Virus record (IMG/VR): IMGVR_UViG_3300010400_000005
Coordinates: 7,352 to 71,351 of that record
Origin: a virus
DNA length: 64,000 bases
Direction: 5' to 3' (one strand)
Shown: one piece after another, positions 7,126 through 47,090 of the stretch
How the letters are laid out: each line of letters begins with the position of its first letter
Numbering within the stretch: the stretch's first letter is position 1
Made by a program: the position numbers and the translations under genes
Notes under the pieces: model-generated
Seen by the model: the letters and a program-made list of their open reading frames with translations, nothing else
Database searches by the model: none
Told to the model about the DNA's origin: nothing

Positions 7126-7407
7126 ATGCCTTATGAATTAGATATATCTTCTGAAACTACAAAAGAAGCAAGTGATTTATTGGCAAATCAAGCATTAATT
7201 GTAGTTAATGCAACTACTAACACTGCAAAACTAATTGCAAAAGATTCTGCTGGAGATGCAATTGAAGCTAATTTTATGCCTGCTGCTGTAAGTTTTCTTG
7301 CTGATCCAGTCGGTGCTGTGACTGATCAAGATGACGAAGCGAGAGCAGCAATAATTGCTATTCGAGATAGAATGATTACATTGGGATTAATGGAAGCTGA
7401 GGCTTAG
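7126..7407 (+). CDS. Small head-fibre-like protein
   Basis: C-terminal LADPVG..DDEARAAIIAIRDRMITLGLM resembles the helical C-terminus of head-fibre/DUF2793-type proteins. Confidence 0.45.
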   Translation: MPYELDISSETTKEASDLLANQALIVVNATTNTAKLIAKDSAGDAIEANFMPAAVSFLADPVGAVTDQDDEARAAIIAIRDRMITLGLMEAEA

Positions 7408-9035: not shown

Positions 9036-11070
9036 TTTTTTCTTAATTATTTTATTTACAACATATACTAAGGCTGCACCAGTTCTTACTAATGTAAGCG
9101 CAGTAAGAGTATCTGATGTGACAGCAGGTATTAGTTTAACTACAAATACAACTAGTTTCTGCTCTGTTGTTTATGGATTAACTACTTCGTATGGCGCACA
9201 AACAATTATTGTTCCTACGCATTTTTTTAATGAGCACTTTATAACTTTATATGGGTTAGTTCCAAACTCTCTATATCATTATAAAGTTACATGTACAGAT
9301 GCAAGTACTACTTCTACAACTGATATTGATAGAACTTTTACTACGCAAGCAGTTGCTACAGTTCCAAGATTACCAATTCCATTAGATCCGAATTTGCCGA
9401 ATTTATCTGGAGCAACTGTTAAAACAGTTAGAACTAGTGGTGGAAATTATACCTTAGATCAGTTACAAACTGCTATAAATGATGCAATTGCTTCCAGTGG
9501 AAACAGAATTATAGATGTTGAGGCTGGACAAGTCATATCTGGTAATTTTACTATTGGTGTAAAGGTAGATAATTCCTGTATACAGATAAGAAGCTCTAAT
9601 TATAATAACTTAAGAATAGGAAAGAGAGTAACTCCAACAGATGTTGCGAATTTGGTTAGAATTAGAAGTAATAATATAGCAGATCCAGCATTAGCAGTAT
9701 TTAGAACCGTTGGAGCTAGTAGGTGTACAATTTTTACTGGGATCGAAATAACTATAGATCCCTCTATAATTGCTGACGCTCCAGGCGGAACTAGTCAAAC
9801 TAAACTAGTAATGCTTGGAACAGCAGCAGAAACTTCTCAATCTCAACTTCCTTCTAATTTTAGATTTGATAGATGTTGGATTCATGGAATTGATCTTAAG
9901 AATACAAAAAGAGGTATTTATGTAAATGCAGAAAAAACTGTATTTATTGATTCAACTATAGAAAGATTTCAAGATACAAACGGAGATTCTCAAGCAATCT
10001 TAATTGGAACTGCTAAGCAATTATTAGTTTGGAATTGTTATGTAAATGGTGCTGGAGAAAATGTTTTATCTGGTGGTGTTGATCAAACAATAACTGGTTA
10101 TGCGACTTCTGATTTAGAATTTAGATATTCAGACTTTCCATGGTTATTAAAGTGGAAATCTAATGATCCTTCTTGGGATGGTAAAGATTGGGTCACTAAG
10201 AATAATTTTGAAATAAAAAAAGGTGAAGCAGTTTTAATATTTGCCTGTAATTTTGGTCCTTGGTGGGAATCTGAACAAACTGGTGGAACTATTAGTTTTA
10301 AAACATCTAATGATGATCCTAATCCAATTGTAATTGCTAAGGATATTTTAGTTTACCTATCTAGATTTAGAAATGTTGGTGCAGGAATAGTAATTAATGG
10401 TTCTAATAATACACTAGAAGAATCTACTGATCATACTAGAAGAATATCTTTTCTATATGATTTATTTGAAATAGATGGAATTACATTTAATAATGAAGAT
10501 AGTGGAAATCCTTCCAGTGGAAATATGTCACTTATTTTAACATCATATCAAGGCGGAGTAAAACATTATCCAGATGATTTTTCAATAGAGCATTGTACAT
10601 TTGTTAATTCTCGTGGTGGAAATAGAGTAATACACCTATTTGATACTCCAGCAACAGGAACTTCTTTAGGAAATGGATTTATATTTAGAAATAATATTCT
10701 TACATATAATATATTCGGCATAAAAGCTGATGGAACTGCTGAAGGAACAGCTTCTTTAAATGTTGCTACTGATAGTGCAACTAGAACTTGGAGTAAGAAT
10801 TTAATTAATGGAAGTTCTACAAACTATCCAACTGATAATACTTATGTTTCATCAGCAACAGATATTCAGTTTGTTGATTTTAACAATGGATTTTCTGGTG
10901 GAAACTTCAAACTAAGAGCTACAAGTCCTGGGAAAAATGCAGCAAGTGATGGAACTGATATGGGATATGATAAGGATAGATTAGATAGAGCTATCTCTGG
11001 TACAATAAGTGGAAGTTGGTTAGGAAGTATAAGTCAATGTAATTGGAATACAGATCCTGTGTGTAACTAA
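9010..11070 (+). CDS. Secreted FN3 + right-handed beta-helix protein (depolymerase-like)
   Basis: Probable start MKLREV at 9010 gives a signal peptide ending TKA; VVYGLTTSYG..H..TL.GL.PN..YHYKV is FN3-like; LQTAINDA, CWIHG, FRNNI, F.L...SPGKNAASDG.D.G are beta-helix family patterns. Confidence 0.7.
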   Translation: MKLREVLISFFLIILFTTYTKAAPVLTNVSAVRVSDVTAGISLTTNTTSFCSVVYGLTTSYGAQTIIVPTHFFNEHFITLYGLVPNSLYHYKVTCTDASTTSTTDIDRTFTTQAVATVPRLPIPLDPNLPNLSGATVKTVRTSGGNYTLDQLQTAINDAIASSGNRIIDVEAGQVISGNFTIGVKVDNSCIQIRSSNYNNLRIGKRVTPTDVANLVRIRSNNIADPALAVFRTVGASRCTIFTGIEITIDPSIIADAPGGTSQTKLVMLGTAAETSQSQLPSNFRFDRCWIHGIDLKNTKRGIYVNAEKTVFIDSTIERFQDTNGDSQAILIGTAKQLLVWNCYVNGAGENVLSGGVDQTITGYATSDLEFRYSDFPWLLKWKSNDPSWDGKDWVTKNNFEIKKGEAVLIFACNFGPWWESEQTGGTISFKTSNDDPNPIVIAKDILVYLSRFRNVGAGIVINGSNNTLEESTDHTRRISFLYDLFEIDGITFNNEDSGNPSSGNMSLILTSYQGGVKHYPDDFSIEHCTFVNSRGGNRVIHLFDTPATGTSLGNGFIFRNNILTYNIFGIKADGTAEGTASLNVATDSATRTWSKNLINGSSTNYPTDNTYVSSATDIQFVDFNNGFSGGNFKLRATSPGKNAASDGTDMGYDKDRLDRAISGTISGSWLGSISQCNWNTDPVCN

Positions 11071-12425
11071 TGACCTCTCCAAAATTCCAACATACAACTA
11101 GGGCAGCTTTTAAGGATCAGTTCTTTAAAAGAGTTGGAGATTTATCTAAAAGATTTTGGACTGATGATGAAGCCAATTTATTACTAAAGGAAGCTCTGCA
11201 TACATTTGGCGCAATTGGGCATATTTGGAGAAATCAAATAGAAATTAAAACAATTGCTGGACAGAGTTTTTATGATATAACAACTGATTTGTTTGCTGAG
11301 CAAGAGCTAACCTCATTCAATTTAGATTATCAATTTATTCTAGATTGTATTAATTTTCATCTAATAGAAAGTATTGGCACAGGAAGTCCAATAAGTGAAA
11401 TTACAAGTTTAGATGAAATATTAAAATTTGCTCGTAATCGCGTGAATCAATTTCAATTTCAAACAGGTCTTATATTGAGTAAGAAGTTATTCAATATGAA
11501 TCCTCCTAATGATAATAAAGTAGTAATAGACGACGAAGTGTTAGATGTAGTAAGAGCAGCTTATGTTAATCTAGATGAACTTACAAATCCTGATGAAATA
11601 TTTCCATTAGGTAGAGAAGATGAAAGTAATGTAGGATATTTTAATAGAAATGCATTTAATGAAACTGTAGAAGTTCCTGAATTTTATACAGCAGTTCTTG
11701 GTAATTTAAATACTATAAAAATCTATCCACTTCCAGCGAATCTTGGCAAGTTAGAGATTATATCAGTAAATGGAATTCCTTCTACTACAACACTAGCTTT
11801 AGATACTAAAATAGGAATTCCTGATAACTTAGTTTCTTATATAAAATGGGGAGTTTTGGCAGATATTTATTCAAAAGATGGAATTGCTTACAATCCTTCA
11901 ATGTCTGCTTATTGTGAAGAAAGATGGAGTGAGGGATTAATTGTTGGTAAGAATTATACTTCAGTATTAGAAGCTAAATTAAATGGGCTTCCATTACTTA
12001 TAGATTCTATAGTAAGCGCTGATAACAATCAATATGGATGGCAAAATAATATAGATCAACCATCTTTATTACTATCTGCTGGATATAACTTATTTGCAGT
12101 TAATTGTATTCCCGATGATATTTACTCAATATTAATGTTTGCAGTTACTAATGCTTATATCCCAATTGATGATGATGATTTCATAGATGTTAAGATGGAA
12201 TATATAGAGCCATTATTAGATTATTGTATTCACTTGGCGAGTATAAAAAATGGCGCTGAAGCAGTACAAATAACAACCGACGAGAGAAATAATTTTATAA
12301 GAACAGGAATTAAAAACAATCTTAGACTTATGAAGAATGGATATTCAGTAGAAACTATGTTTAAACGAACAAAAAGACAAGAGGAAGATAATTCTATTAG
12401 GGTTAAAGAAGAAATGGTTGTGTAA
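11070..12425 (+). CDS. Putative tail tubular/adaptor protein
   Basis: RFWTDDEAN..LKEAL, TIAGQSFYD and IKIYPLP motifs; lies before the nozzle-like gene. Confidence 0.55.
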   Translation: MTSPKFQHTTRAAFKDQFFKRVGDLSKRFWTDDEANLLLKEALHTFGAIGHIWRNQIEIKTIAGQSFYDITTDLFAEQELTSFNLDYQFILDCINFHLIESIGTGSPISEITSLDEILKFARNRVNQFQFQTGLILSKKLFNMNPPNDNKVVIDDEVLDVVRAAYVNLDELTNPDEIFPLGREDESNVGYFNRNAFNETVEVPEFYTAVLGNLNTIKIYPLPANLGKLEIISVNGIPSTTTLALDTKIGIPDNLVSYIKWGVLADIYSKDGIAYNPSMSAYCEERWSEGLIVGKNYTSVLEAKLNGLPLLIDSIVSADNNQYGWQNNIDQPSLLLSAGYNLFAVNCIPDDIYSILMFAVTNAYIPIDDDDFIDVKMEYIEPLLDYCIHLASIKNGAEAVQITTDERNNFIRTGIKNNLRLMKNGYSVETMFKRTKRQEEDNSIRVKEEMVV

Positions 12426-15400
12426 TGGCAGATCACAAATATCACTCACAAAAAATGCTATGTTCAGGAATGGTACTTGGAGTGGTTTCTGACTTAGTGC
12501 CACAGAACAAGTTTAGATTTCTGCAAAATATCCGTGTTGACGTAGAGGGTGAATTTAAGTCTAGACCAAAGGTTTTTCCATTTCTAAGTTTAAATCCAGC
12601 GTTGCCTCAAGTTCCTCATACCATTAAAACTATTGTAAACAAGATAACTGGAGAAATTAATAGAATTATTGGAGTTGATACAGAAATATATACAGGGAGT
12701 GGAGATCCATTAAATCAAAAAGTTGGCGGATTTTCTAATGATCCTTTAAGCATTGTCGATTTTCGTCCAGAAGAGGCTACAGAAGCTTATGCTTATATTG
12801 CTGATAGTCTGAAGATGTGTAAGATTTCTGTTAGTAATATTCTATCAGATATAGGAATTAATGCGCCGACAAAAGCACTTTCATTTGCTATTTCCAAACC
12901 ATTTAGGAAAATAATAGACAATATAACAACAGCAGATGTTGCTGATTGGGATGATTTAATTGGCAGCGCAGCAACTCCAATTGTTGAAGATAGAATAGAT
13001 GATACTATAACTGCAATCTTATATGACGATGTTGCTCCTTGTTTCGCCTCTGTAGTTACTGATGTTCCACCAACTTTACAAACTGGTGCAATTGTTATAA
13101 TTGATGGAAGCGATGAGCTTATTGTAGAGGAAATTATTCCAGCTAGTTTATTAAGTGGAGTTGCTACTATTGAATCTATAAGTTACGATAGTGGAACTAG
13201 TGGATTATGCACTATCGTCCTATCAACTTCTGACGTTTCTCTTAGAAGAAACTCTATCTTATTATTAAATGGAACAGAATATGTGAGAGTGCAAGAAGTT
13301 ACTAGAAATATAAATAATCTTCCATCAGTTAGAGTTTCTACAGTTGGCACATTTGCAGTTGGAAATACGGTAGTAGGTGCAGCTTCTTTGAGAGTATTTG
13401 CAACAGTTGGAACTTATGCTGCTGCTGATACTATATTTGCAGAAGGATTAATTACTTCTGTAGGAGCAGCAGGAATTTCAGCTATAACTAACACGATCGA
13501 TGTTGATCTAACAAATGCTGATGGACAACCTTTAAAGAATACAGATTATTTACACTGTTCATTAAAAGTGAGTAATCCTGCTGTATTAACAGAAATTCAG
13601 ATTCAGTTAGATTGTGATTCAGCAGTTCCTTTTAATAATTATTTTTATTACCCAATAACCCCTAATTATTTTACAAGTTCGGCAGCACAGGAAACCTCTA
13701 CACTTTCTGCAATTCAACAAACTGTACAAAGAGAAGAACTTATTAATAAACTATTAAGATTAGGAGATCAAGAATCATCTGGCGGATTTAGCACTAGACA
13801 AGATTTAGGACTAGATCCAATTGTTGATTATTTAGATACGACTTCTCCTATTGGTCAAACAGGCTTAGGTGAACAACAGTGGATTGAACTTTATATTAAA
13901 TTAGGAGATTTAAAACGTGTAGGAACTGATGCTTCTAGGACAAAGAAAGATATTAAAGCTATTCGTTTATCTATTAATTGTGCAGCAGCAATTGATGTTG
14001 GATTAGACTCAATTTGGGTAGGTGGTGGAAGTGATTTAGAATCTACTAGAGGAACTTCCAGTTTAATTCCATACAATTATATATGGCGAGTAAGAGATCC
14101 GCGAACAAAAGCTATTTCCAATTGGAGTCCTCCTTTAAGAGAAGCAATTTCTACCTCTAGAAATTCTATAGCACTAACTCCAGTTGATGCAAATACTGAT
14201 TTCTCTACAGATTTTGTAATAGATATTGCGCGATTTGGTGGATCTTTAAAAGATTATAGAATTATTGGAACTGTAAAAAACGATGGATCTTCATTTATAG
14301 ATACTGTATCTGATTTTGTAGCTGCACTAAATGAACCTGCTGGAAGAAGATTAAAAGGAGATCAAATTGGAGATGAAGAAGTATTTGATTTTTATAAACC
14401 ATTTGCTTTTTTAGATACGCCAAAATTAGGAATTTGTAGCGTTATTGGAACTAAGTTTACTTGGATCAGTGGAGATCAATTGAATATTTCATATCCTCGT
14501 GGAGTGCAAATTTTAATTGATGGAATATTAAATAGATTCTATACGAATCCCACAGATGTTTCTCATGTTGAACTTGAAAAAGATATGGGAAGCTTATCTA
14601 ATGTAAACTTTGAAATTAAAGCTCCCTTATTGACAGGTCAACCTTTACCAATTATATTTGGCCCATTTGGAGAAGGTAATTCAGGACTATTCATATTTGG
14701 AGTTGGAAATAAGAAAGCTGCTGGCACAGTTTATTGGTTAGATGGAAATTCTCCTGATACACAAAGTGATATTAACTTTCTAGAAATAACTTCTCCTAGT
14801 GAAGTTTTACTAACTGGAGTTATGTATGATGGATATGGATTTTTATTTTCTAATAAGCGCAGCTTCATGTTAATTCCAACTTTTCAGTCTGGTGCTCTTG
14901 GCTTTATTGCTAGAGAAAATGCTGGTTCTAGGGGAGTATTTAGTAGATGGTCAATTTGTGTAGGAAGAGATGCAATTTATTATTTAACAGATAATGCTGA
15001 TGGAATTGTAAAATCTGCTGGAACTGGAATTCCTCAATATATTACTAATGGAAGTTTATATAATTTATTTCCTCATAATGGTGTTGATCCTTTACCAGTT
15101 GGCATATCAACAGGGACTGATGGAATTGTTATTCAGCCACCAGATTTTTCTATTCCAGAAGCAATTAGATTTTTTCATATAAGAGACTATTTATTCTTTA
15201 GATTTATAGATTTATCAGGCAATCATATCTGTTTAGTTTATGATGAGAAGATGAATGATTGGATTTCTTATGATACTTATGCAGATGATAAAATGAACGT
15301 TGTTTATACTGAAGAAATAGAATCTTCATCTGATGTTTTAGTAGGAATTGAGAGTGGGGTTGGAAAATTCTCAGATGGACTAACTGCAAGAGAAAATGAT

Positions 15401-31941: not shown

Positions 31942-34900
31942 TCATATCTTAAGTTCCTTCATACCATCTGGATTATTTGTTTCATGGAATGGTCCCCAAT
32001 TTCGGCCATATTTCATTTCTACCTGTGTAATAAGTCCTTCAGGCGCTACAGAATTCTTTAAATATCTTGCAGGTCTGCTCATAACCTCTTTAATAACTCC
32101 TGCTGCTATTTCTACTTTATCTTCATCAACTTCAAAAGTTAAATCATCATGTATTTCATTTACTAAACCAAACTCTCTAACATAATTTCTGATAATTCCA
32201 TCCTTTTGATATTCCCATAGGTCACGCATGGCTTCTTTTTTCTTTCCAAACGCGTCATTAGCAGGAAGGAAAGCTATTGCTTTATTAGTATCATTACCTT
32301 GTCTTACATGATATAATCTTCCCTTACTTCTAACTAATCTTTCGCCCAATCTCATTGATTTTGGCGGCGCATATACTAATCTCCAATCAAACACATCATT
32401 GAACCATCTTATGTAACCATACCTAGAAATTAAATATTCATCTCTGTCTGCTCTTTCTAATATATTTTTGTGGAAATCAACAAATGTTTTTGGGAATAGA
32501 TTTCTTATTATTTCAATTAATTTCTCACAAGCTTTAACGTCAGGAAATGAATAGCGATTTAATTTATAAAACTTATGTTCACGCATTCCAAAACCCATGC
32601 CTAAGATAGCTGGTTTGGCTTGCGAATTTCGCGTAAATTCAAAGTTCTTTTTAATCCACTTTAATTGACCCCCTAATTCTTCATCAGACAAAGCTAACCA
32701 CTGTTGCAAATTTTTAAGTCTATTAAGTGTTTCTTCATATTTAGCAACTTTGGCAATCCAAGCTTCATGTGTTAACTTATCAGGTTTTTTCGCACGAACT
32801 TTAGCAAACTTCATTGGAAGTTCTTCTGCTAAAATATAAGCTGCTACGTAAGAGTGTACATCTAATCTTACTAATCTCATGTATTCAGCATCTTCAGCTT
32901 CAAACCCTAAAGTTAATGCGTGAAATGCTGACCAATCTCCTGATAATAATAATTTTCCTGCTCCTGCACAGATTGTTTTTCTAAATTGATTAGCGAGTTC
33001 CTTGTAGCCCGGAGAACTAAATCTAGTACCTCTAGCTGGTGCATTATGGATCTTACTAGACAACTGACCTGTTGCAGGAATTGGCAAAAAGTCTGCATGA
33101 ATTCGATTGTCTTTGGAGACAACCCATCCTTTTCGTTTTGAATCGACATAAGTTGATTTTAATTTCCTCAATTCTCTAGCATAAACTATATATTCAAATA
33201 ATTTATCACCAGTGCTATCGAATAACTCACTAATTTTATCTTTAGTAGTAGTAGGTTTATCACCTTTCCGAAAATCTCTAGTAGTTGGAACTTTATATCC
33301 TTTATATTCTATATACTTAATAGTTTGCTGTGGTGATCCGGGCTTATACTTCTCCATTCTACACCAGCGTTTTTCCATTTCACCAGCAATATTAAACTCA
33401 TGGAGTACTAAACCAGTAGTATCTATTTCCTTGGTAACAACAGTTCCATCTCTTTTTCTAGATTGTCTTACTCTAGAATTTTGTTCTATATATCTTGCCA
33501 GATATTTTTGATAATTCTCTGCATCTCCAAAAATTATATATTGATTACCACTACCATTAGTATTTGGCTTTCTATAAAGTTCATTAAATTTAATAGTAAG
33601 ATCAGTTATTTCCTTTGGAACAAATTTATAACCTTCAGATGGAGTTACCTTTCTTAATTGAAAAGGATACAGTTCTTGAATAGCTTTATTAGTTTTTCTA
33701 ATTTCACTAACAAGCATCTTCCGCATTTCTTCTCTAGCTTCCATGTCTATTGGTAAACCTCTAGCAGTCATGTCGAGAAGAATTGGGCGAAGATTCACTA
33801 TATCATCTATGTAGCCTTCGTATAAAGATTTAGTTTCTGGTAAGAATCTCTTATTCTTTAAAGTTGGAGTTAATCCATTATCAATTCTTTTTACACTATC
33901 AACATCTATACAACCATATTCTTTTGGATCACTTTCTGATCTATGTTTCCATGCTGGTAATTCTGGCGCGAAGAAATTAGCAGCAAATTGTAATGCTCTT
34001 CCTACTTTAACAAAATCTGGATTAGCATGTTTCCACTCCCACATTAAGTCTAAGTTTAAGCCTTTAACGCAACCTTTTCCTAAATGATATTCTAAGTTTG
34101 TCTGATCAAATCTCCAGTTATTCCAGCCTAGCTTAGTATTCGGAAGAGAAAGTATTTTGGCTGCGATATTCGTAAAATCTGCTCCATCCCAGCTAAGAAA
34201 TATCCCCTTTCCACTTTCACATGAAAATTGAATCGAATTGATATCTCTGACCTCGATATTTTCATATTCAATTTCAGTCTCATCTGTTTCCAAAATTGTA
34301 TCGGGTGTTTCAATATCATAGGATATTGCAAGGTTAGAGTTACGTCTGCATATTTCATAGAATTCATTGGCCTGCTCCAAAGTTGGATCTAAAATATAAT
34401 CATGCTTAAAAGGAAACTCAATTCCTTTTGCTATTTGCATTGCATGAAATACATCTCTCTTTAACACGTGGAGCAATAATCTTTCCCCACGAGCAATAAA
34501 AGAGGGATGGATAGTGCTAACAATAGGAATACCAAGGATGCTATTAAATGTATAACCTCTAAGCGAAGTAGATCCAAGTTTTTTAAGTTGCTTTTTATTC
34601 TTCTCAGCTTTAGCATTTTTAACTAGCTCCCCAATTTCAGGACATAAATATCGTAGGGGAAGATTTCCTAATGCTAGGATACATTTTATTTTTCCATAAT
34701 ACTTTTTAAGAACTTCCTGAAAGTGTACGCGACAATGAATAATAGAAGACTCTTCATATGGCATGTTTTCTAGAAGATTATTAGGAGGTTGACAAGCTAT
34801 TAAATTCCATAAGAGAAAATCTAATCTATCGGTTTGTGCAACTCCTTGTCTTTCTAATCTTCTAAATACAGTTTGTAGAACGCTACCAGATTCGGCGTAT

Positions 34901-35055
34901 GGGCGCAAAGGAAGTCCATCTTGTTTCTCTTTAGATCCTAAAGCTTCGCCTATTATCATTACACCATTTGTACAATTACCTTCTGGGCGTGAAAATCCAC
35001 CTTGCTGATAACCATAGAGAGAACAACCAAAACAGGTCGGTGGCTTAGAAAGCAC
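31942..35055 (-). CDS. polA: Family A DNA polymerase with N-terminal uracil-DNA-glycosylase-like domain
   Basis: CxxC..IGEALG..N...CQPP.N..C..LG..HPS (family-4 UDG fold); YDIET (ExoI); TG.LSS, GDWS, R....K......FG and IHDD polymerase motifs. Confidence 0.9.
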   Translation of the reverse strand: MLSKPPTCFGCSLYGYQQGGFSRPEGNCTNGVMIIGEALGSKEKQDGLPLRPYAESGSVLQTVFRRLERQGVAQTDRLDFLLWNLIACQPPNNLLENMPYEESSIIHCRVHFQEVLKKYYGKIKCILALGNLPLRYLCPEIGELVKNAKAEKNKKQLKKLGSTSLRGYTFNSILGIPIVSTIHPSFIARGERLLLHVLKRDVFHAMQIAKGIEFPFKHDYILDPTLEQANEFYEICRRNSNLAISYDIETPDTILETDETEIEYENIEVRDINSIQFSCESGKGIFLSWDGADFTNIAAKILSLPNTKLGWNNWRFDQTNLEYHLGKGCVKGLNLDLMWEWKHANPDFVKVGRALQFAANFFAPELPAWKHRSESDPKEYGCIDVDSVKRIDNGLTPTLKNKRFLPETKSLYEGYIDDIVNLRPILLDMTARGLPIDMEAREEMRKMLVSEIRKTNKAIQELYPFQLRKVTPSEGYKFVPKEITDLTIKFNELYRKPNTNGSGNQYIIFGDAENYQKYLARYIEQNSRVRQSRKRDGTVVTKEIDTTGLVLHEFNIAGEMEKRWCRMEKYKPGSPQQTIKYIEYKGYKVPTTRDFRKGDKPTTTKDKISELFDSTGDKLFEYIVYARELRKLKSTYVDSKRKGWVVSKDNRIHADFLPIPATGQLSSKIHNAPARGTRFSSPGYKELANQFRKTICAGAGKLLLSGDWSAFHALTLGFEAEDAEYMRLVRLDVHSYVAAYILAEELPMKFAKVRAKKPDKLTHEAWIAKVAKYEETLNRLKNLQQWLALSDEELGGQLKWIKKNFEFTRNSQAKPAILGMGFGMREHKFYKLNRYSFPDVKACEKLIEIIRNLFPKTFVDFHKNILERADRDEYLISRYGYIRWFNDVFDWRLVYAPPKSMRLGERLVRSKGRLYHVRQGNDTNKAIAFLPANDAFGKKKEAMRDLWEYQKDGIIRNYVREFGLVNEIHDDLTFEVDEDKVEIAAGVIKEVMSRPARYLKNSVAPEGLITQVEMKYGRNWGPFHETNNPDGMKELKI

Positions 35056-35797
35056 TATTTTCTACCTCCGCTTGCAATTTGTCTGCAAAATCTATTGCCT
35101 CCTGTTTTGAACTGCATGTTTTCCAAATTCTTTTCTTTCCTATTCTCTGATTTACAATCCATCTAGACCAGCCTTTTCGATAAAAAATATTATCTCTAAA
35201 GTTTCTTTTTTCTCGTGGAAATGGTGTTATTATATTATCAAATGTTAATCCTATTATTTTTTGTTTTATGGAGCCAGCTATAGCTAATTCATCATCAAGC
35301 TCACCAATCATAATTCCATTTAAATATGTGTCAATAGCAAGTAAATGTAACAAGATCCTAAAATTTTCTGCTTCTTCCTTAGTAATAAATCCTTTTATGT
35401 AAATTTTATTATTAATTCTAATTTGTGCATACCATTTATTTTCTTTCTTAGCAAATGCTAATCCAACCCTTCTTCTTATAGAAGTTAATAATTTGTTTTG
35501 TTGCTTTGTTGTAATCTGTAAATTTTCGCGTCTATTATCTAATCCATTATTAGCAATATGATCAACTTCTTGAATAGCTTTATCAGTTCTTTTACAGATG
35601 AGACTATGTAACATTATTATTCTATTGTTGATACTGGTATAAGCATATTTATTATGTCCATTATCAGCAATATGCCATAATTTATACTTGTTAATTCTAT
35701 CAAGATCATCAACATCTATAACAGTCCAATATGGCTCATTCTTACACATAAGTTTTATAAAGACATAATCACCTGAAATATAGAAATCATTTGTCAT
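35045..35797 (-). CDS. HNH-AP2-type homing endonuclease
   Basis: LHSLI..EVDHI.NNGLDNRRENL followed by KWYAQIR..F.TKEEA AP2-like repeats. Confidence 0.85.
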   Translation of the reverse strand: MTNDFYISGDYVFIKLMCKNEPYWTVIDVDDLDRINKYKLWHIADNGHNKYAYTSINNRIIMLHSLICKRTDKAIQEVDHIANNGLDNRRENLQITTKQQNKLLTSIRRRVGLAFAKKENKWYAQIRINNKIYIKGFITKEEAENFRILLHLLAIDTYLNGIMIGELDDELAIAGSIKQKIIGLTFDNIITPFPREKRNFRDNIFYRKGWSRWIVNQRIGKKRIWKTCSSKQEAIDFADKLQAEVENSAF

Positions 35798-39090: not shown

Positions 39091-39756
39091 TTATCTCTTC
39101 AAGTGCTGAGCTACGTAAGCTTGAGCATAGACTTCACTACCATCAACTCTATTCTCAAAGAAATGTCGATAAGATCCATCAGGATTCTTTGGGAAAAATC
39201 GCATCTTATTTGCAAGAGTTACATAACCATCTTTATTAGCACGAGGATCAGCAGGATTCTTCATACTTGCTCGCCATTCTAATTCAATGGTTCCCATTGG
39301 TTTCTGTGCCAATGTTTGCTCCATCAAAGTTTTTAATTCTGCCTGAGTTGCTGTTGGTGGAACAGTTACGCCAATTTTGTAGAGAAAATCGTGAACTGCT
39401 GTTGTTGCTACTAGTTTATTATAGATTGAATTGATCCAATCCAAAACTTGATATTCGTGATATTCAGTTCCTTCTGCTACGATATGACCAACTAAAGGAA
39501 CTATAATGAAAGTACCAGATTTCTTACTAGCTCTATATTCAATTTCTTTTTCTCCCAATTCCCACTGAATAATATATTCTTTACCTCCAGTTGGCGGAGG
39601 AACTCTTACATTAATATCTTTAGATTGATCAGCAACTTCTACTTTTTGATTTGGATCTACTGCTACTTGCTCTTCTTCTGTATCTGCGCCATTTGCAGCA
39701 GTTCCTACTGAAGTTGCACCAGCAGCCATATGTGGCATATCTTTTTCTTGAAACAT
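39091..39756 (-). CDS. Putative ssDNA-binding protein
   Basis: AGGAG RBS; beta-rich; lies between recombinase-like ATPase and helicase (positional inference). Confidence 0.4.
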   Translation of the reverse strand: MFQEKDMPHMAAGATSVGTAANGADTEEEQVAVDPNQKVEVADQSKDINVRVPPPTGGKEYIIQWELGEKEIEYRASKKSGTFIIVPLVGHIVAEGTEYHEYQVLDWINSIYNKLVATTAVHDFLYKIGVTVPPTATQAELKTLMEQTLAQKPMGTIELEWRASMKNPADPRANKDGYVTLANKMRFFPKNPDGSYRHFFENRVDGSEVYAQAYVAQHLKR

Positions 39757-41911: not shown

Positions 41912-42325
41912 TCATGTGTTTGTTCTTACTTGTTGATCTGATAATTTTGGATTTTCATTATTCTCATGTCGCTTAATCCAGTTACAATTGGCACACAAGA
42001 TTTGAAATCTAATGATTCCATTGTTTAGTTCTCTCAAAACTCTATAATAATAAGCTAGTCTCCCTGTAGTTTTTAATTCCTTCACTCCACCACCATTTTT
42101 ATGATCTATTTGTAGTGCTCTAACATCTGAAAATCCACAACCAACACAAACTCCACCTAGTTTTTCTATAATTAGCAAACGGAATCTTTTTTGCCGACAT
42201 TTATCATGTTCAAGTTGATTGTTTGAAACTTCATATTTTGAAGTTAATGGTTCTTTACAAACTCTACATATTCTATAGTTTGTTTTTAGTTGATTTAACG
42301 GAATTGTACTAATTTTGAATGGCAC
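41912..42325 (-). CDS. HNH endonuclease
   Basis: LGGVCVGCG..ALQIDH..GGG..QILCANCN. Confidence 0.85.
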   Translation of the reverse strand: MPFKISTIPLNQLKTNYRICRVCKEPLTSKYEVSNNQLEHDKCRQKRFRLLIIEKLGGVCVGCGFSDVRALQIDHKNGGGVKELKTTGRLAYYYRVLRELNNGIIRFQILCANCNWIKRHENNENPKLSDQQVRTNT

Positions 42326-43886: not shown

Positions 43887-44660
43887 TTGCTCATCTCCAA
43901 TTCTATAACAATTTTTTTATCTTTATTATTTATCTTACTTCCCAAGAATTCCATTCCGACTTGTGCTCCATGAATATGCTCTACTATATTGCGCGCAAAC
44001 ACAGCAGAAGCGTTGTTAATTTGAATTTCATAATCTAATAGCTCAGCATTTCTTTGTTTATGTGTTATCTGATCTATCAACTCTCTTAAAGTCATTTTTT
44101 CTCACTTTCTTTTGCATCTGCTTTACTACATGCATTATGAACTAGTAATTGAACACCAAGACTTGTTTGAGTTAACAATAAATGCTCATGACTTCCAAAA
44201 TTATCCATAAGTAAACAAAATGCTTGTGTTCCTATATCAACCTTACTACTCATTTCTCTTCCATCTGGAGTAATTCCAAAATATTGAATTATCCTTTCGT
44301 CAAACTTATGGGATAACTCATGTACTATTTGCCATGCTATTACAGTAGCAGAAGCAATGTTGTCATTTGTCTTAGCAAGGTAGTATTTTATATTGTCTCT
44401 ATCTACACTAACTTCTTTATTTGCACAATCTATTAGAATATTAATCATTTTTTATATTCACTTTCTTTTGCAATTCGATTTAGAAGTTCTGGATCATTCA
44501 ACTCAAATGTTTTATGAACTCTCATTACTGGACTATCATCTGGATCACTATCAATCCAACGATTAAGAACATTTTCATTTGTTATTACTCCAATAACTGT
44601 TTCGTTTGTTTTACTACGTGAATGTAGATCATGCTCAATTAAGACATATACTTTACTCAC
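43883..44660 (-). CDS. Three hypothetical ORFs (43883-44095, 44092-44448, 44445-44660)
   Basis: Chain of 4-nt start/stop overlaps. Confidence 0.55.
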
Positions 44661-46129
44661 TCCTTAATAAATCCCCTTTCAATATGATAAAGTTTCTCAG
44701 GAACATGATGTGGGGTTCTATTTACGTAGACATTTCCTGCTATTAAATCTCCTAAATTAAATCCTTCATGGCAAACTTTAGTAAACTGACAATCTTTACC
44801 ATAATAATCCCAACATCTTTGAGTTTCCTTTCTAAATAATTTCATTAAAGCAATTTCATATTGCTCCCATTTGCCTGTTTTTCTAGCAAATTCAGCGTGT
44901 TGTTCCATTATTTCTAAATTCTTAAAAATCTCTTCTTCTTCTTGATATCTAGTAGAAATTAACCACTCTTTCAATTGAGCGCCATCATTTCTATCTCTAA
45001 ATATCAAATCAGAAGTAATAATTAATTCATCTAAAGGATTTCCATTTTCAGTTTGAACTAAACCACTTGCTAACATTTCTACCCAATTCTTGATTCCCAT
45101 ATCTTCCCAAATATTTATCTTAGACCATCCTTTAGGCTGGCGTCCCGCATTTACTTTCCACTTATAGTGATCTGGAGTTGCTATGAATTGAGTAGTTGTT
45201 TGTGAGAAAATATTGAAAGTAGTCTGTTCTTCATATTTATAAGGATGAACTAGGAAATTTTGCCGCTTTCTAAGTCCTGATTTATCGTAATCTTTCCAAG
45301 AGCCTGTTATTAAATGTTCATATTGAACTGCATAGACTTTTGGCTTTTGATCATTCTTCCAACACCATTCAAAATACCTGTGCCATCTTTCATCACAGAG
45401 AATATCTGGACTTTCATCACAATTAACAACTGCTTTGTAATTGTCAAAATCTCTATCTAACTTCGCTTGAACTGCCATCCACTCAGAATTCCCCTGCATA
45501 TCTGTTAGCAAATTTCTAATAGTGTTCTCAGCATATTCACTAGCAGTTTTTAATGAACAAATTACTACACCTTTAGAATAATCTTTAGTAAGAAATTCAG
45601 CGTCAGCCTTACTTTGCCAAATTATACTTTCTGAAAATTCTGGATAGATTATATCATTTTCTACTTCAATAACCTCATATTCCTCTAATAAAGAAGGAAG
45701 TCTTTTGAGAGAAAAGCATCTAATTAATCCTTCGATTAAGCATTCATGTTCTGCAATTACGAAACTTATAAAATTAGTTTCACCTTCTTTAAGAGAAATA
45801 GAATGTTTTGAAATATCATCTCGAAATAATTTAATAGCAAAATCTACAGCTTCATTAATACATTGCTCTTCAAACATTCCATCTTGATGATGAATTCTAC
45901 AATGTTCAAATAAGTGTTGTAAGCCTCTATGCACGGCAGTTCCAGTTTCTAAATTCATATCTATAGCTTCTGGAGATAAACCATGGCCGCCGTAGTGATT
46001 AGAAAGGTATCTTTTTCTAAGGCAAGTTTGTGCTGTTAAAGCAGCAGTTCTTGATGTAAAACGCTTGATTTCATTTCGCATGATATTGCTCCACAGTTTC
46101 AGTTTCAACAAAGCAATTTGCAGCTCCAA
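44657..46129 (-). CDS. PD-(D/E)XK / Cas4-like exonuclease (probable start 46081)
   Basis: N-terminal C.RK.Y, GTAVH, EVE, KAD..LKT, C-terminal C.....C.F...C. Confidence 0.7.
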   Translation of the reverse strand: MELQIALLKLKLWSNIMRNEIKRFTSRTAALTAQTCLRKRYLSNHYGGHGLSPEAIDMNLETGTAVHRGLQHLFEHCRIHHQDGMFEEQCINEAVDFAIKLFRDDISKHSISLKEGETNFISFVIAEHECLIEGLIRCFSLKRLPSLLEEYEVIEVENDIIYPEFSESIIWQSKADAEFLTKDYSKGVVICSLKTASEYAENTIRNLLTDMQGNSEWMAVQAKLDRDFDNYKAVVNCDESPDILCDERWHRYFEWCWKNDQKPKVYAVQYEHLITGSWKDYDKSGLRKRQNFLVHPYKYEEQTTFNIFSQTTTQFIATPDHYKWKVNAGRQPKGWSKINIWEDMGIKNWVEMLASGLVQTENGNPLDELIITSDLIFRDRNDGAQLKEWLISTRYQEEEEIFKNLEIMEQHAEFARKTGKWEQYEIALMKLFRKETQRCWDYYGKDCQFTKVCHEGFNLGDLIAGNVYVNRTPHHVPEKLYHIERGFIKE

Positions 46130-46522
46130 TAACTATTCTTAATACTTCTGCAAACTCTACCGCTTCTTTGTAAGTTTGAAATTCTCTTAGTTCTAGATAA
46201 CATAAGTTTGTAGGTTCTGATTCTCGTAATGCATTATGAAGTTCTACAGTAGAACAATCATTATACATATTTATTCTAATTTCGTAATTTATCATTCTTT
46301 TATCTTCATCCTTATCTTAATCTCTCCAATATTCATTTTATGTACGAAATCTTTAATCCAGTCAGGAGTAGTAAATAAAATAGAAGGAATTGGAGGATTT
46401 AATTTAATTGTAAATATAGGATCGTGAATTCTTGCTCTTCTTCTTATAGTTAAATGAGAAATTTTCCCATTTCGTTTCCATTTATCAATTACAAATTTGT
46501 GTTTTATTTTGTGTTCTGGCAT
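46071..46522 (-). CDS. Two small hypothetical ORFs
   Basis: 46071-46295 and 46292-46522, coupled. Confidence 0.45.
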
Positions 46523-47090
46523 ATAGTATACTCATGCAATCTTTACACGTTAATAACTTTTCATCTAAAGTTATTTTTTCATTAGATTGTTTAATTCCAC
46601 AAGTTATAGTTTCAGTTGCTAATCCAACATCATCTATCCAATGGACTATTGGATCATCTATAATTTCCATTTTTACTTTATTTACAATTGCTTTGGTTAG
46701 ATCTTGTTCTAATATACTTCTCTCATTAACTAAATCTCTATTAATTGCGCCTTCTTCATTAAATTTTCCCTTATATCTAGCTTGAAGTTTTTTAATTACA
46801 GCTGCCCAAATTTCCTCATAACTATTACCTAATTCATCAAGCGCAATTGCTGTATACCACTGACTATCTCCAATTTCCTCTTTTATATTTACTAAATCTA
46901 ATTCTTTTCCATAGAAAATATATTTCTTAAGTGCATCCATTAATTCAGCAGCTTCTGTTACTAAACCCATAGATGCATGAAGTAAGCGGATGATTCTTTC
47001 ATCTGTTATTCGTTCGTAAATCGCAGGGAAATTACTAGATTCTGTTTTTATTGCTTCTTTTATAAACATATCTGAAATTGATTTACTCAT
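46485..47090 (-). CDS. MazG-like nucleotide pyrophosphohydrolase
   Basis: LLHASMGLVTEAAELMD.LKK..FYGK..EEIGD..WY..KL.ARY. Confidence 0.88.
   Translation of the reverse strand: MSKSISDMFIKEAIKTESSNFPAIYERITDERIIRLLHASMGLVTEAAELMDALKKYIFYGKELDLVNIKEEIGDSQWYTAIALDELGNSYEEIWAAVIKKLQARYKGKFNEEGAINRDLVNERSILEQDLTKAIVNKVKMEIIDDPIVHWIDDVGLATETITCGIKQSNEKITLDEKLLTCKDCMSILYARTQNKTQICN

Follow-up and report, generated by a model that had tools for sequence, protein, structure and literature searches.

Gln and His in place of Arg668 and Glu710 in a clade of UDG-exonuclease-PolA fusion polymerases from uncultured phages

Phage DNA polymerases in which a UDG domain is fused to PolA are already known, and such fusions were recently shown to couple replication with uracil excision. 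The SP15-like enzymes of YerA41 and phiLo have an active UDG fused to the replicative PolA (Missoury et al. 2026, PMC13697223). The catalytic UDG residues of phiLo are E53 and H178, and UDG-PolAs of this kind remove dU from the template and then bypass the abasic site that this leaves (PMC13697223). The SP15-like enzymes are large (1306 aa in YerA41), with two large inserts and an extended C-terminal region of about 80 aa; they have Phe at the F762 position (F930, F1055), and PolX and a ligase co-occur with them (PMC13697223). SPO1 gp31 (FJ230960) combines a family-4 UDG-like domain with catalytic residues, an exonuclease and an HDS motif C, and the SPO1 genome encodes a dUMP hydroxymethylase and has hmU in its DNA (PMC10201439). 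The N4 DNAP (EF056009; N4-like, cluster #17 of Czernecki et al. 2023) has the same UDG-exonuclease-PolA order in a genome of about 70 kb, and the N4-like enzymes have lost the catalytic UDG residues and have Phe at F762 (PMC10201439). A further group, DpoZ (phiVC8-like and Wayne-like), has a Phe at Y766 that has been called unique to it (PMC10201439, PMC8599892), and the phiVC8-like enzymes also have Leu at the F762 position.

Three residues, E710, Y766 and the TGR Arg, are regarded as fixed points of family A polymerases, and attempts to engineer Taq, Klenow and Bst towards RNA or XNA synthesis begin with them. E710 and Y766 have been described as "universally conserved within A-family polymerases" and their hydrogen bond as invariant (PMC3715850), and the TGR motif is conserved in Klenow-fold polymerases, related RNA polymerases included (PMC10201439). 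In Bst, R615, E658, Q797 and D830, the counterparts of E. coli R668, E710, Q849 and D882, lie close together and interact electrostatically; reading of the terminal base pair falls to R668 and Q849, and mutants at these sites shift the error spectra (PMC10520511). The Klenow mutant Y766F is similar to the wild type. E710A and E710Q have a mutator phenotype and form the closed complex poorly, the incorporation rate of E710Q is low, and both binding constants of E710A for the complementary rNTP are improved about twofold (PMC3715850). From these mutator phenotypes, replacement of the Glu is not harmless by default.

The polymerase gene described here was found in a window of 64,000 nucleotides, positions 7,352 to 71,351 of IMG/VR record IMGVR_UViG_3300010400_000005. 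The record is a complete genome of 71,351 bp with direct terminal repeats (100% by CheckV), from an uncultured and probably lytic phage. A search of the whole record showed one PolA gene and no PolB, and no second polymerase was seen among the 63 ORFs scanned with Pfam and PHROG. The gene product is a fusion of three domains (Table 1), and its N-terminus matches the ML.KP start of its homologues. It scored above the cut-offs for PF00476 (64 bits, cut-off 34.3, best stretch residues 568-744) and PF03167 (37.1 bits, cut-off 24.3), and matched phrog_17, "DNA polymerase", with E = 6.7e-38. An AF2 model of the fusion protein had a pLDDT of 88.9 and a pTM of 0.84, and its top Foldseek match was Klenow 8oo6_A (E = 1.7e-18, TM 0.75 by target length). 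Klenow and the large fragments of Bst and Taq share the fold, with TM values of 0.70-0.76 by target length, at an identity to solved Pol I structures of 12-17% (Foldseek). The PF00476 score, above the curated cut-off, and the Klenow-type fold place the enzyme in the Pol I family; the fusion has no 5' nuclease domain.

Table 1. Position of the polymerase gene, its domains and its motifs in the window.
Feature	Position	Strand	Basis or conservation
Whole gene, UDG / 3'-5' exonuclease / family A polymerase fusion, 1037 aa, GTG start	31942..35055	-	ORF list, translation
N-terminal family-4 UDG-like domain, ~residues 1-210	34426..35055	-	profile match to Thermotoga UDG
3'-5' exonuclease domain, ~residues 240-400: DIET (D247, E249), D317, Y380, D384	33856..34338	-	conservation
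Polymerase domain, ~residues 560-1027	31975..33378	-	Pfam, Foldseek
TGQLSS, "TGR" motif, Gln664 for Arg668	33055..33072	-	Q 209/211
KIHN for N(L/I)QN, short deletion; window's subclade	33043..33054	-	5/38 in A1
Motif A DWSAFH	32920..32937	-	D707 211/211, H712 209/211, F711 175/211
Motif B / O-helix RNSQAKPAILGMGFG	32587..32631	-	K814, L818, F822; R809 one residue farther from Lys than R754
Motif 6 AIAFLPANDAFG	32245..32280	-	A932 at Q849 position, N933 conserved beside
Motif C HDD: H969 = H881, D970 = D882, D971 = E883	32143..32151	-	H, D 211/211

All residue counts refer to HMM-derived alignments, with 211 metagenomic rows for the family and 121 for its sister clade. The UDG residues C8, C11, C88 and C108, E37 in GEALG, N84 and H183 in HPSF are present, and the family profile matches the UDG of Thermotoga, TM0511, with E = 8.5e-33. 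The complete pattern C,C,E,N,C,C,H was seen in 160 family rows; the incomplete rows mostly have column gaps, largely at the two N-terminal Cys. By profile match and catalytic residues the protein would be a UDG-PolA fusion with a putatively active UDG, and we infer its glycosylase activity from these residues. The exonuclease residues are kept almost without exception, D247, E249 and D317 in 210 rows each, Y380 and D384 in all 211.

A first-pass annotation, made by eye, had missed the three-domain fusion and proposed that highly conserved active-site residues are substituted in a coordinated way between 32140 and 33075 on the minus strand, which corresponds to residues 661-972 of the 1037-aa ORF, from ATGQLSS to IHDDL. 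We aligned the enzyme to Klenow chains in two ways, as a single protein with phmmer and as a 38-sequence family profile with hmmsearch (E = 1.5e-31), with the Pol I number taken as chain index + 324. The two alignments agreed, and neither restored the canonical residues. TGQLSS aligns with TGRLSS, with Q664 at R668, so the Arg of the TGR motif is Gln, as had been proposed. Motif A DWSAFH aligns with DYSQIE (D707 = D705, F711 = I709, H712 = E710), and in place of a steric-gate Glu hydrogen-bonded to Tyr766 the enzyme has His712 and Phe822. In motif B, AKPAILGMGFG aligns ungapped with AKAINFGLIYG (K814 = K758, L818 = F762, F822 = Y766), which bears out the reading of Leu at 762 and Phe at 766. 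The extra residue seen there also held up: the family Arg, R809, precedes the Lys by five residues and falls on Q753, and at R754 itself the family column holds Asp or Asn in 192 of the 211 rows. The reported loss of Q849 was found again, on the register given by HMMER, which pairs DAFG with TAAD and places A932 opposite Q849; in 119 of 121 rows of the sister clade this very column is Gln.

Two of the proposed changes turned out to be of smaller scope. KIHN does stand where Pol I has NLQN, but it is confined to the window's close subclade, five sequences (P0001, P0003, P0005, P0008 and P0010) in the 38-sequence alignment A1, the remainder being PNIQNAP-like. Likewise, HDD for HDE is correct (D971 = E883) but nothing special, since the third position of motif C is variable among the family rows (S in 96, D in 50, A in 43 and E in 17 of 211) and is also Ser in SPO1 gp31 and the sister clade. 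The other altered columns are less uniform than 664 and 712. At L818 there is Leu in 165 and His in 37 rows, at F822 Phe in 163, Leu in 23, Asn in 18 and Tyr in 7, and at Q849 Ala in 131, Ser in 43 and Gln in 29, with N933 beside it in 173 rows and R809 in 206. The catalytic residues are kept, D705, H881 and D882 in every row and K758 in 210. The window enzyme thus shares D705, D882, K758, H881 and the exonuclease carboxylates with Klenow and differs from it by replacement of R668, I709, E710, F762, Y766, Q849 and E883, and by the additional N-terminal UDG.

Of the described fusions, the SP15-like ones are the best available model for a survey of the template by the UDG. Judged by length (1037 aa as compared to 1306 aa for YerA41), the window enzyme would have neither their inserts nor their C-terminal extension, and the complete genome gave no match to PF14792 (PolX; a weak control, positive in 2 of 14 genomes and never over the cut-off) or PF01068 (ATP ligase). 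No SP15-like record came up in the tblastn search of phage records, and the YerA41 and phiLo structures 9QHS, 9QHU and 9QLH were absent from the best 60 of 95 profile matches and from Foldseek ranks 1-50. SPO1 gp31 differs by its canonical TGRLSS, DYSQLE, K..QFG..Y and PIQGT, and its exons scored 50.8 and 26.3 bits against the family profile, below the 113-140 bits of bacterial Pol I. Furthermore, the pair of genes expected of an SPO1-like system, a ThyA-type dUMP hydroxymethylase (PF00303) and a trimeric dUTPase/dCTP deaminase (PF00692), had no match in the complete genome, which has a ThyX-like gene instead. The N4 DNAP could be aligned by hhalign with a probability of 97.5% and E = 7.6e-12, though its score against the family profile was only 33 bits. 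It has SGRLSS and DFASLE, so Arg and Glu are kept. The window enzyme departs from the N4-like type in its intact UDG residues and in Leu at the B3 position (F762).

The Leu at F762 and the Phe at Y766 (B4) together prompted a DpoZ-like reading, with 2-aminoadenine in the genome, which we rejected as the complete genome has no PurZ: the search for PurZ/adenylosuccinate-synthetase-like proteins gave no match, with the control positive in 14 of 14 genomes. A UDG fusion is undescribed for DpoZ, no DpoZ structure was among the best 60 of 95 profile matches, and the available text of PMC10201439 and PMC8599892 reports no Gln/His at 668/710 in DpoZ.

There is strong support for the suggestion that the enzyme belongs to a PolA clade of its own. 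At least 150 clusters (50% identity) score at least 767 bits against the family profile, a number taken from the best 150 of about 5,100 library matches at E <= 1e-30, and the proteins are mostly 900-1060 aa long. Gln at 668 and His at 710 are each found in 209 of the 211 rows. Only P0075 and P0076 depart from this; both have the full set R, I, E, Y and Q, and they belong to a sister clade of proteins of about 1000 aa, on viral contigs of 65-73 kb, with the same three-domain architecture and size; one of its members, P0238, scored 801 bits against the family profile. The sister clade has the same UDG signature, with all of C,C,E,N,C,C,H present in 97 of 121 rows, and a motif C of HDS or HDD. 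The neighbours common to both clades are a Dda/PIF1-like helicase, a PD-(D/E)XK nuclease and two families without a name. The sister clade differs in retaining R668 and E710 (121 of 121 rows), Y766 (117) and Q849 (119), with the F762 position His in 105 and Tyr in 16.

The Q/H clade is known only from metagenomes. A tblastn search with P0001 in 50,697 deposited phage records gave one weak partial match and no family relative, and P0076 gave 354 weak matches, none covering at least 80% (best, 23.8% identity over 69% of the query). The only prophage or host trace in 185,579 species genomes was one MAG contig of 1,576 bp. We found no description of a Gln/His PolA or of the sister clade in the literature searched, and no occurrence of E615H, E710H or E658H; R668Q, among the matches listed, referred to other proteins, and Nasko 2018 (PMC6302109) mentions neither positions 668 and 710 nor UDG.

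The two replacements occur jointly. Among 86 IMG/VR loci with a polymerase match, 63 had R and E, 20 had Q and H, one had Q and F, and two were incomplete; no mixed R+H or Q+E was seen in the 84 readable at both positions. An unbiased scan of columns found 56 that are at least 90% conserved in both clades, of which seven differ, and 664 and 712 are the sole polymerase-domain columns of the 56 at which the Q/H clade no longer has the Pol I residue. Chance is excluded as the source of Q664 and H712. In unrooted FastTree trees all 54 Q/H rows fell on one side of a branch with an SH-like support of 95, and of 91 after removal of eight trait columns, with a program warning that long branches meet where the R/E clade joins Pol I. 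As the Q/H sequences form one tree group, there was one ancestral switch. The word coordinated should therefore be read as one branch followed by invariance, and not as repeated independent covariation.

It was also possible to find inteins in the relatives, of canonical type (a Cys start, and an end of H, G, S or L, then N, then C or S), and these occupy the altered motifs: 12 at TGQLS-S/PNIQN, 3 in motif A and 12 in motif B. Others were found at UDG C88 (7), in the UDG HPS motif (1) and in the exonuclease domain (14). Together with the conserved catalytic and exonuclease residues, the inteins in the altered motifs suggest a working enzyme.

We consider it probable, with some reserve, that this is a replicative, working and proofreading polymerase in which the Arg-Glu charge pair has been swapped for a neutral Gln-His pair, the His serving as an aromatic-type gate. 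On the branch leading to the clade, a polar cluster at the bottom of the pocket for the nascent base pair would have been exchanged from Arg668/Glu710 to Gln/His. These two residues sit with Tyr766 and Gln849, and the partners may have relaxed later, to Phe or Leu and to Ala or Ser. A buried plus/minus pair would thus be turned into a neutral hydrogen-bonding pair, in which the Gln may retain one contact to the minor groove or to a sugar oxygen. The imidazole ring could pack below C2' of the incoming sugar, so that ribonucleotides would still be excluded. Aromatic sugar gates are found in B-family, Y-family and reverse-transcriptase polymerases. At one locus of the Q type, L022, the gate position is Phe (DYKSFF), which we count in favour of a steric role for residue 712. 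The lost check by Q849 may be covered by the intact exonuclease. The enzyme would then be active and dNTP-selective, possibly with shifted kinetics or fidelity, and template uracil could also be excised, by analogy with the SP15-like UDG-PolAs. The mutator behaviour of E710A and E710Q in Klenow (PMC3715850) counts against this reading.

The first-pass annotation also proposed altered substrate selection. One form of this is a re-tuned sugar selection, in which the gate (His or Phe), acting with the Phe, Leu and Phe that stand at I709, F762 and Y766, would change the sugars accepted, either by incorporation of ribo- or 2'-modified nucleotides or by better rejection of 3'-modified terminators. 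We regard it as unlikely, though it is the first of the alternatives to keep in mind. All of the altered positions line the sugar pocket, E710 being the gate and F762 and Y766 assisting (PMC3715850, PMC10201439, PMC13697223), the residue set is fixed across the clade, and the roughly twofold better rNTP binding of E710A (PMC3715850) goes in the same direction. On the other hand, Y766F alone is near wild type (PMC3715850), and His and Phe are at least as large as Glu near C2', so exclusion of the 2'-OH would be expected to persist. The proofreading and uracil-excision domains are kept, which suggests selection for clean DNA, and no RNase H was matched when the window's ORFs were scanned with PHROG and Pfam. 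Should the Gln/His (rarely Gln/Phe) pocket nevertheless be a natural redesign of sugar recognition in a Pol I-type replicase, for which the chances seem low, the enzyme would handle 2' and 3' unlike the characterised family A enzymes. Efficient use of ribo- or 2'-modified nucleotides might then be possible, or alternatively resistance to chain terminators, which would suit the replicase to an unusual pool of nucleotides or to host immunity that acts through nucleotides.

A modified genome like those of phages with SPO1-like and SP15-like UDG-PolAs, in which a base is replaced (e.g. 5-hydroxymethyluracil or a hypermodified form for thymine) and the pocket has adapted to that substrate, appears more doubtful still. 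UDG-PolAs with intact UDG residues have been linked to T-modified genomes (PMC13697223, PMC10201439), the UDG residues are intact here, and the products of the window include an atypical ThyX-like protein, a MazG-like pyrophosphatase and a protein with DUF1937 (nucleoside deoxyribosyltransferase-like). The majority of the neighbouring genes could not be assigned to a Pfam or PHROG family, which leaves room for a nucleotide-modifying pathway. Against this, the complete genome lacks matches to all of the enzymes named above, that is the ThyA-family hydroxymethylase, dUTPase/dCTP deaminase, PurZ, PolX (with its weak control) and ATP ligase. None of the modification enzymes sought near the gene, thymidylate-synthase-like, 5-hmdU DNA kinase, pyrophosphorylase and glycosyltransferase, was among the 101 ORFs at 10 related loci, and a T-modification was rejected on these two grounds. 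The altered residues would also be in the wrong place, as they face the sugar and the minor groove, while the known phage thymine modifications are on the C5/major-groove side (Missoury 2026, PMC13697223). Furthermore, canonical residues occur together with this UDG fusion in the sister clade, and the genomes were assembled from ordinary metagenomes, as compared to YerA41 and RP13, for which RNA-seq was needed (PMC13697223).

Improbable to a similar degree is an adaptation to lesion bypass, in which the lost R668 and Q849 contacts would ease extension from abasic sites made by the enzyme's own UDG ahead of the fork, with the exonuclease repaying the cost in intrinsic fidelity. The SP15-like UDG-PolAs excise dU and must pass the abasic site (PMC13697223), mutants of R668 and Q849 change the error spectra (PMC10520511), and Q849 is lost in most of the clade, yet both the R/E sister clade and SPO1 have the UDG fusion and keep R668 and Q849. 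An artefact or a dead enzyme is hardly credible: at 12-17% identity to Pol I structures an alignment by eye could slip, but misalignment is ruled out by the agreement of the phmmer and profile alignments and by the register of the sister clade, a sequencing error does not fit with Q and H in nearly all rows from independent metagenomes, and an inactive relic, or a crippled or sloppy enzyme, does not fit with conserved catalytic Asp, Lys and His and five conserved exonuclease residues in the sole polymerase of a complete genome.

The exchange of Arg-Glu for Gln-His is of interest since the clade is large, diverse and under purifying selection, and the fixed points are replaced in the sole replicase of its phages. 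What appears to be new, on comparison of the sequences, is not the kind of enzyme but the paired Gln/His, clade-wide, and with its sister the clade adds two large uncultured groups to the UDG-PolA fusions. The Q/H clade and the R/E sister form a natural pair for study of the roles of the Glu gate and the Arg contact, of an aromatic-type gate in the Pol I fold, and of the substrate properties that accompany it.

The neighbourhoods of the two clades also differ in one gene. A protein of 200-250 aa is encoded in 14 of 23 Q/H neighbourhoods as compared to 0 of 30 R/E neighbourhoods; it had no Pfam or PHROG match and no Atlas lead of at least 0.9. Its AF2 model (pLDDT 80.5) weakly matched OB-fold single-strand-binding proteins (best E = 0.011), and judged by this model it is probably a phage SSB and not a nucleotide enzyme. 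A dATP/dGTP diphosphohydrolase domain was observed at one related locus, in one of the 101 ORFs.

The interval 32140-33075 on the minus strand, which the first-pass annotation read as a family A polymerase with coordinated substitutions in its active site, lies inside a larger ORF with a PF00476 match above the cut-off. It corresponds in translation to residues 661-972 of the protein, from ATGQLSS to IHDDL. The protein also matches phrog_17 ('DNA polymerase', E = 6.7e-38). An AlphaFold2 model made from 38 relatives is confident (mean pLDDT 88.9, pTM 0.84), and its best Foldseek matches are structures of Klenow, Bst, Pol theta and Pol nu, the top one being 8oo6_A (E = 1.7e-18, TM 0.75 by target length). 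The end of a free-standing gene for an HNH endonuclease (35045-35797, minus strand) overlaps the start of the polymerase gene by 11 bases.

Features of the window, with the domains of the polymerase
Feature	Position	Strand	Details
ORF of 1,309 aa	12425-16354		Upstream of the 2,659-aa ORF
ORF of 2,659 aa	19951-27930	plus	Approximately residues 60-215 match metallo-endopeptidase/peptidase PHROGs, e.g. phrog_7767; other residues unassigned
Polymerase ORF	31942-35055	minus	GTG start, 1037 aa
N-terminal UDG superfamily domain	residues 25-192		PF03167, 37.1 bits, cut-off 24.3 (Pfam)
Proofreading exonuclease, DIET...D...YGxxD			Between the UDG and polymerase domains
Family A polymerase domain			PF00476, 64 bits, cut-off 34.3 (Pfam)
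Q/H-specific family, window copy	39091-39756	minus	Members 200-250 aa
Second HNH-like ORF	41912-42325
ThyX-like protein, 368 aa	42780-43886	minus	phrog_85, E = 5.6e-56; Pfam Thy1 over residues 121-187 only
490-aa protein	44657-46129	minus	C-terminal Cys cluster C..C......C
MazG-like pyrophosphatase	46485-47090	minus	phrog_229, E = 2.8e-39

The register to solved Pol I chains was taken from a single-sequence search and from a 38-member family profile (Klenow E = 1.5e-31), and the two agree. Residues Q664, D707, F711, H712, K814, L818 and F822 correspond to R668, D705, I709, E710, K758, F762 and Y766 of E. coli Pol I, and H969, D970 and D971 to H881, D882 and E883. Thus, proper alignment does not restore the canonical residues, and R668Q, E710H, Leu at 762 and Y766F, all first noticed by eye, are found with both methods. 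The extra residue suspected in motif B is seen as a conserved Arg placed one residue further from the Lys than R754. The loss of Q849 also holds, with A932 in that column (HMMER); the register of this motif 6 is settled because a sister clade of UDG-PolA fusions, which keeps Arg668 and Glu710, has Gln in exactly the same column. The change from NLQN to KIHN is real in the window protein but restricted to its subclade, 5 of 38 aligned sequences. HDD instead of HDE does place D971 at E883, but this third position of motif C is variable across the family, and both SPO1 gp31 and the sister clade have Ser there, so it does not belong to the special set.

Relatives with Gln and His at positions 668 and 710 form what we call the Q/H clade. 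A word-indexed search gave 75 close relatives, most with both Pfam domains and many on contigs of 57-71 kb, and when the profile was run exhaustively against 1.84 billion cluster representatives, the best 150 matches all scored at least 767 bits. Among the 211 rows aligned to the profile (P0001, P0002-P0076 and P0100-P0234, with the window protein counted twice, as P0002 is identical to P0001), 209 have Gln at 664 and 209 have His at 712. The catalytic aspartates D705 and D882 are kept in every row, as the first-pass annotation had it, and so is H881; K758 is present in 210 rows and each of five exonuclease residues in 210-211. The UDG pattern C,C,E,N,C,C,H is complete in 160/211, most remaining rows being gapped there. 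The exceptions to Gln/His, P0075 and P0076, have Arg and Glu, and also Ile709, Tyr766 and Gln849. The deposited phage records contained no close relative of the Q/H or the sister clade, and the species genomes gave one tiny MAG contig.

A search with P0076 revealed a second large family, the sister R/E clade, with the same architecture and on contigs of 65-73 kb. Arg668 and Glu710 are present in 121/121 of its rows, Tyr766 in 117 and Gln849 in 119. The F762 position (B3) is His in 105 rows and Tyr in 16 (P0238-P0356, P0075 and P0076; loci L023-L056), and His is also found there in 37 of the 211 Q/H family rows; the literature consulted names Phe, Tyr and Leu as variants at B3. The 86 IMG/VR loci with a polymerase match comprise 63 with Arg and Glu, 20 with Gln and His, one with Gln and Phe and two incomplete, and no mixed state at 668/710 was seen among them. 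Of the 86, the only locus with Phe at the gate position (DYKSFF) is L022, where a Q-type polymerase of 1,664 aa is encoded at 9071-14062 (plus strand) of a 98-kb contig. We scanned every column at least 90% conserved in both clades, and of these 56 columns 49 were identical and seven different. Among these columns, the Q/H clade leaves the Pol I state within the polymerase domain at 664 and 712 only; at 732 and 883, the remaining differences in this domain, the sister clade is the one that deviates.

A FastTree phylogeny was made of 54 Q/H rows, 23 R/E rows, five bacterial Pol I and N4. A single branch (support 95, or 91 with the eight trait columns dropped and N4 left out) separates all the Q/H rows from the others, and the R/E rows likewise form a group (support 100); the tree was made by a fast method, is unrooted, and the program warned of long branches meeting. 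This grouping, and the Gln and His shared by nearly all rows, support the distinct PolA clade proposed earlier. Arg/Glu thus switched to Gln/His once and the new pair has been kept since, a single event and not repeated covariation. With an unrooted tree, Q/H is called derived solely because R/E was seen in all other PolAs examined, namely Pol I, N4, SPO1 and the more distant UDG-PolA loci without exception.

Neither UDG-PolA fusions nor family A polymerases are new. In the available text of Czernecki et al. 2023 (PMC10201439), PolAs are sorted into 19 clusters; the N4-like cluster #17 consists of UDG fusions with dead UDG sites, and the SPO1-type fusions have intact ones. The same text describes the crucial catalytic residues as strictly conserved and B3 (F762) as the most variable position, and it names cluster #14 as the sole one with an altered TGR motif (Thr to Ala) and Phe at B4 (Y766) as unique to DpoZ. 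Unlike the window protein with its Gln/His, N4 DNAP has the canonical Arg and Glu (SGRLSS, DFASLE), and so does SPO1 gp31 (TGRLSS, DYSQLE), which furthermore has F762, Y766 and Q849. With the family profile, N4 reaches 33 bits and the two SPO1 exons 51 and 26 bits, less than the 113-140 bits of bacterial Pol I. We found no description of the Gln/His solution, or of the two large uncultured clades, in the literature searched.

In published structures R668, E710, Q849 and D882 are close together in an electrostatic cluster (PMC10520511, available part). E710 is hydrogen-bonded to Y766, the pair making up the floor of the nascent-pair pocket, and Y766F is about as wild type, while E710A and E710Q are mutators (PMC3715850, available part). 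The best explanation, in which we have somewhat better than even confidence, is a charge-neutral exchange after which the former partners drifted, with gate and proofreading retained. On the simplest reading, a positive Arg and a negative Glu would have been exchanged for Gln and His on one branch, and the former partners would then be free to change, Tyr766 to Phe, Leu or Asn and Gln849 to Ala or Ser. The His, or the Phe in L022, would still keep out the 2'-OH, the Gln may keep one contact, to the minor groove or the sugar ring oxygen, and proofreading could make up for the lost Q849 check. The Phe in L022 points to a steric, ring-stacking role of the gate residue, not to acid-base chemistry or metal binding. 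That the sugar gate has been re-tuned instead of retained is unlikely.

An adaptation to a modified base is less likely again. None of the altered side chains is turned towards C5, and the UDG domain is common to the sister clade. The genome is without a ThyA-type hydroxymethylase, dUTPase/dCTP deaminase, PurZ, PolX and ATP ligase, and the modification enzymes sought were absent from the 101 ORFs examined near the gene in 10 related loci. These absences lower the probability of the reading as far as known families go, most genes in these genomes having no family match. A relaxed checking for abasic-site bypass seems improbable to the same degree. It would recall the SP15-like enzymes defined by Missoury et al. 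2026 (PMC13697223, available text), where the UDG domain removes dU from the template in front of the polymerase and the polymerase goes on past the abasic site left behind.

In relatives, inserted segments some 240-360 aa long show intein hallmarks (Cys as first residue; at the end [HGSL]N and then Cys or Ser), and Pfam intein or LAGLIDADG domains are present in several. Seven are located at the UDG Cys88 site, one at the UDG HPS motif, 14 in the exonuclease domain, 12 just after TGQLSS/PNIQN, three in motif A and 12 in motif B; five more, not necessarily inteins, are in a variable region. Some relatives have two or three inteins, and the carriers include P0014, P0156, P0046, P0050, P0104, P0074 and P0141. 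Inteins home to sites under strong constraint. That they are found in the altered motifs speaks for these motifs being functional and, with the conserved catalytic residues, for a working enzyme. An artefact or a dead enzyme is hardly credible.

The viral record is 71,351 bp with direct terminal repeats and a completeness rated 100%, the window being bases 7352-71351, and the genes are laid out in two divergent blocks. The polymerase ORF is the only PolA match and PolB has no match in the complete genome, and therefore the window polymerase has to be the replicase of the phage. Other recognisable replication genes encode a Dda/PIF1-like helicase, a Sak4-like annealing protein, a RecB/Cas4-like nuclease and an FtsK-like ATPase, and there are also genes for ThyX-like, MazG-like, DUF1937 and DUF3310 proteins and HNH endonucleases. 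Most structural genes had no match in the PHROGs and Pfam scans of the window ORFs. Primase families gave no match in the window (63 ORFs of at least 69 aa by PHROGs, 43 by Pfam); a RepB-type primase domain was seen in one related locus, L010. The ThyX-like protein, with no ThyA alongside it in the complete genome, has a C-terminal extension of about 170 aa, and by eye an insertion of about 30 residues splits the region of what we take to be the ThyX RHR...S motif. The MazG-like pyrophosphatase is extended at its C-terminus by about 70 aa that contain Cys. Homologues of the 490-aa protein occur in 8 of 18 related loci and some match PD-(D/E)XK nuclease, which suggests a nuclease of the RecB/Cas4 type that is kept close to the polymerase gene.

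Loci of the Q/H and of the R/E type alike encode a helicase, a PD-(D/E)XK nuclease and two unnamed families, which indicates that the two phage groups are related. One family (alignment A3) is confined to Q/H neighbourhoods, 14/23 as compared to 0/30 for R/E. Its members have a disordered N-terminus, and some have CxxC...CxxC. The AlphaFold2 model shows a beta-rich domain, with OB-fold single-strand-binding proteins as the best, weak matches, and the gene is placed between the annealing protein and the helicase, as an SSB would be. This protein is probably irrelevant to the substrate chemistry. A tyrosine integrase was also observed 0.5 kb upstream of a Q/H-type polymerase (L009:7946-9253, plus strand), so the clade may have at least one temperate member.
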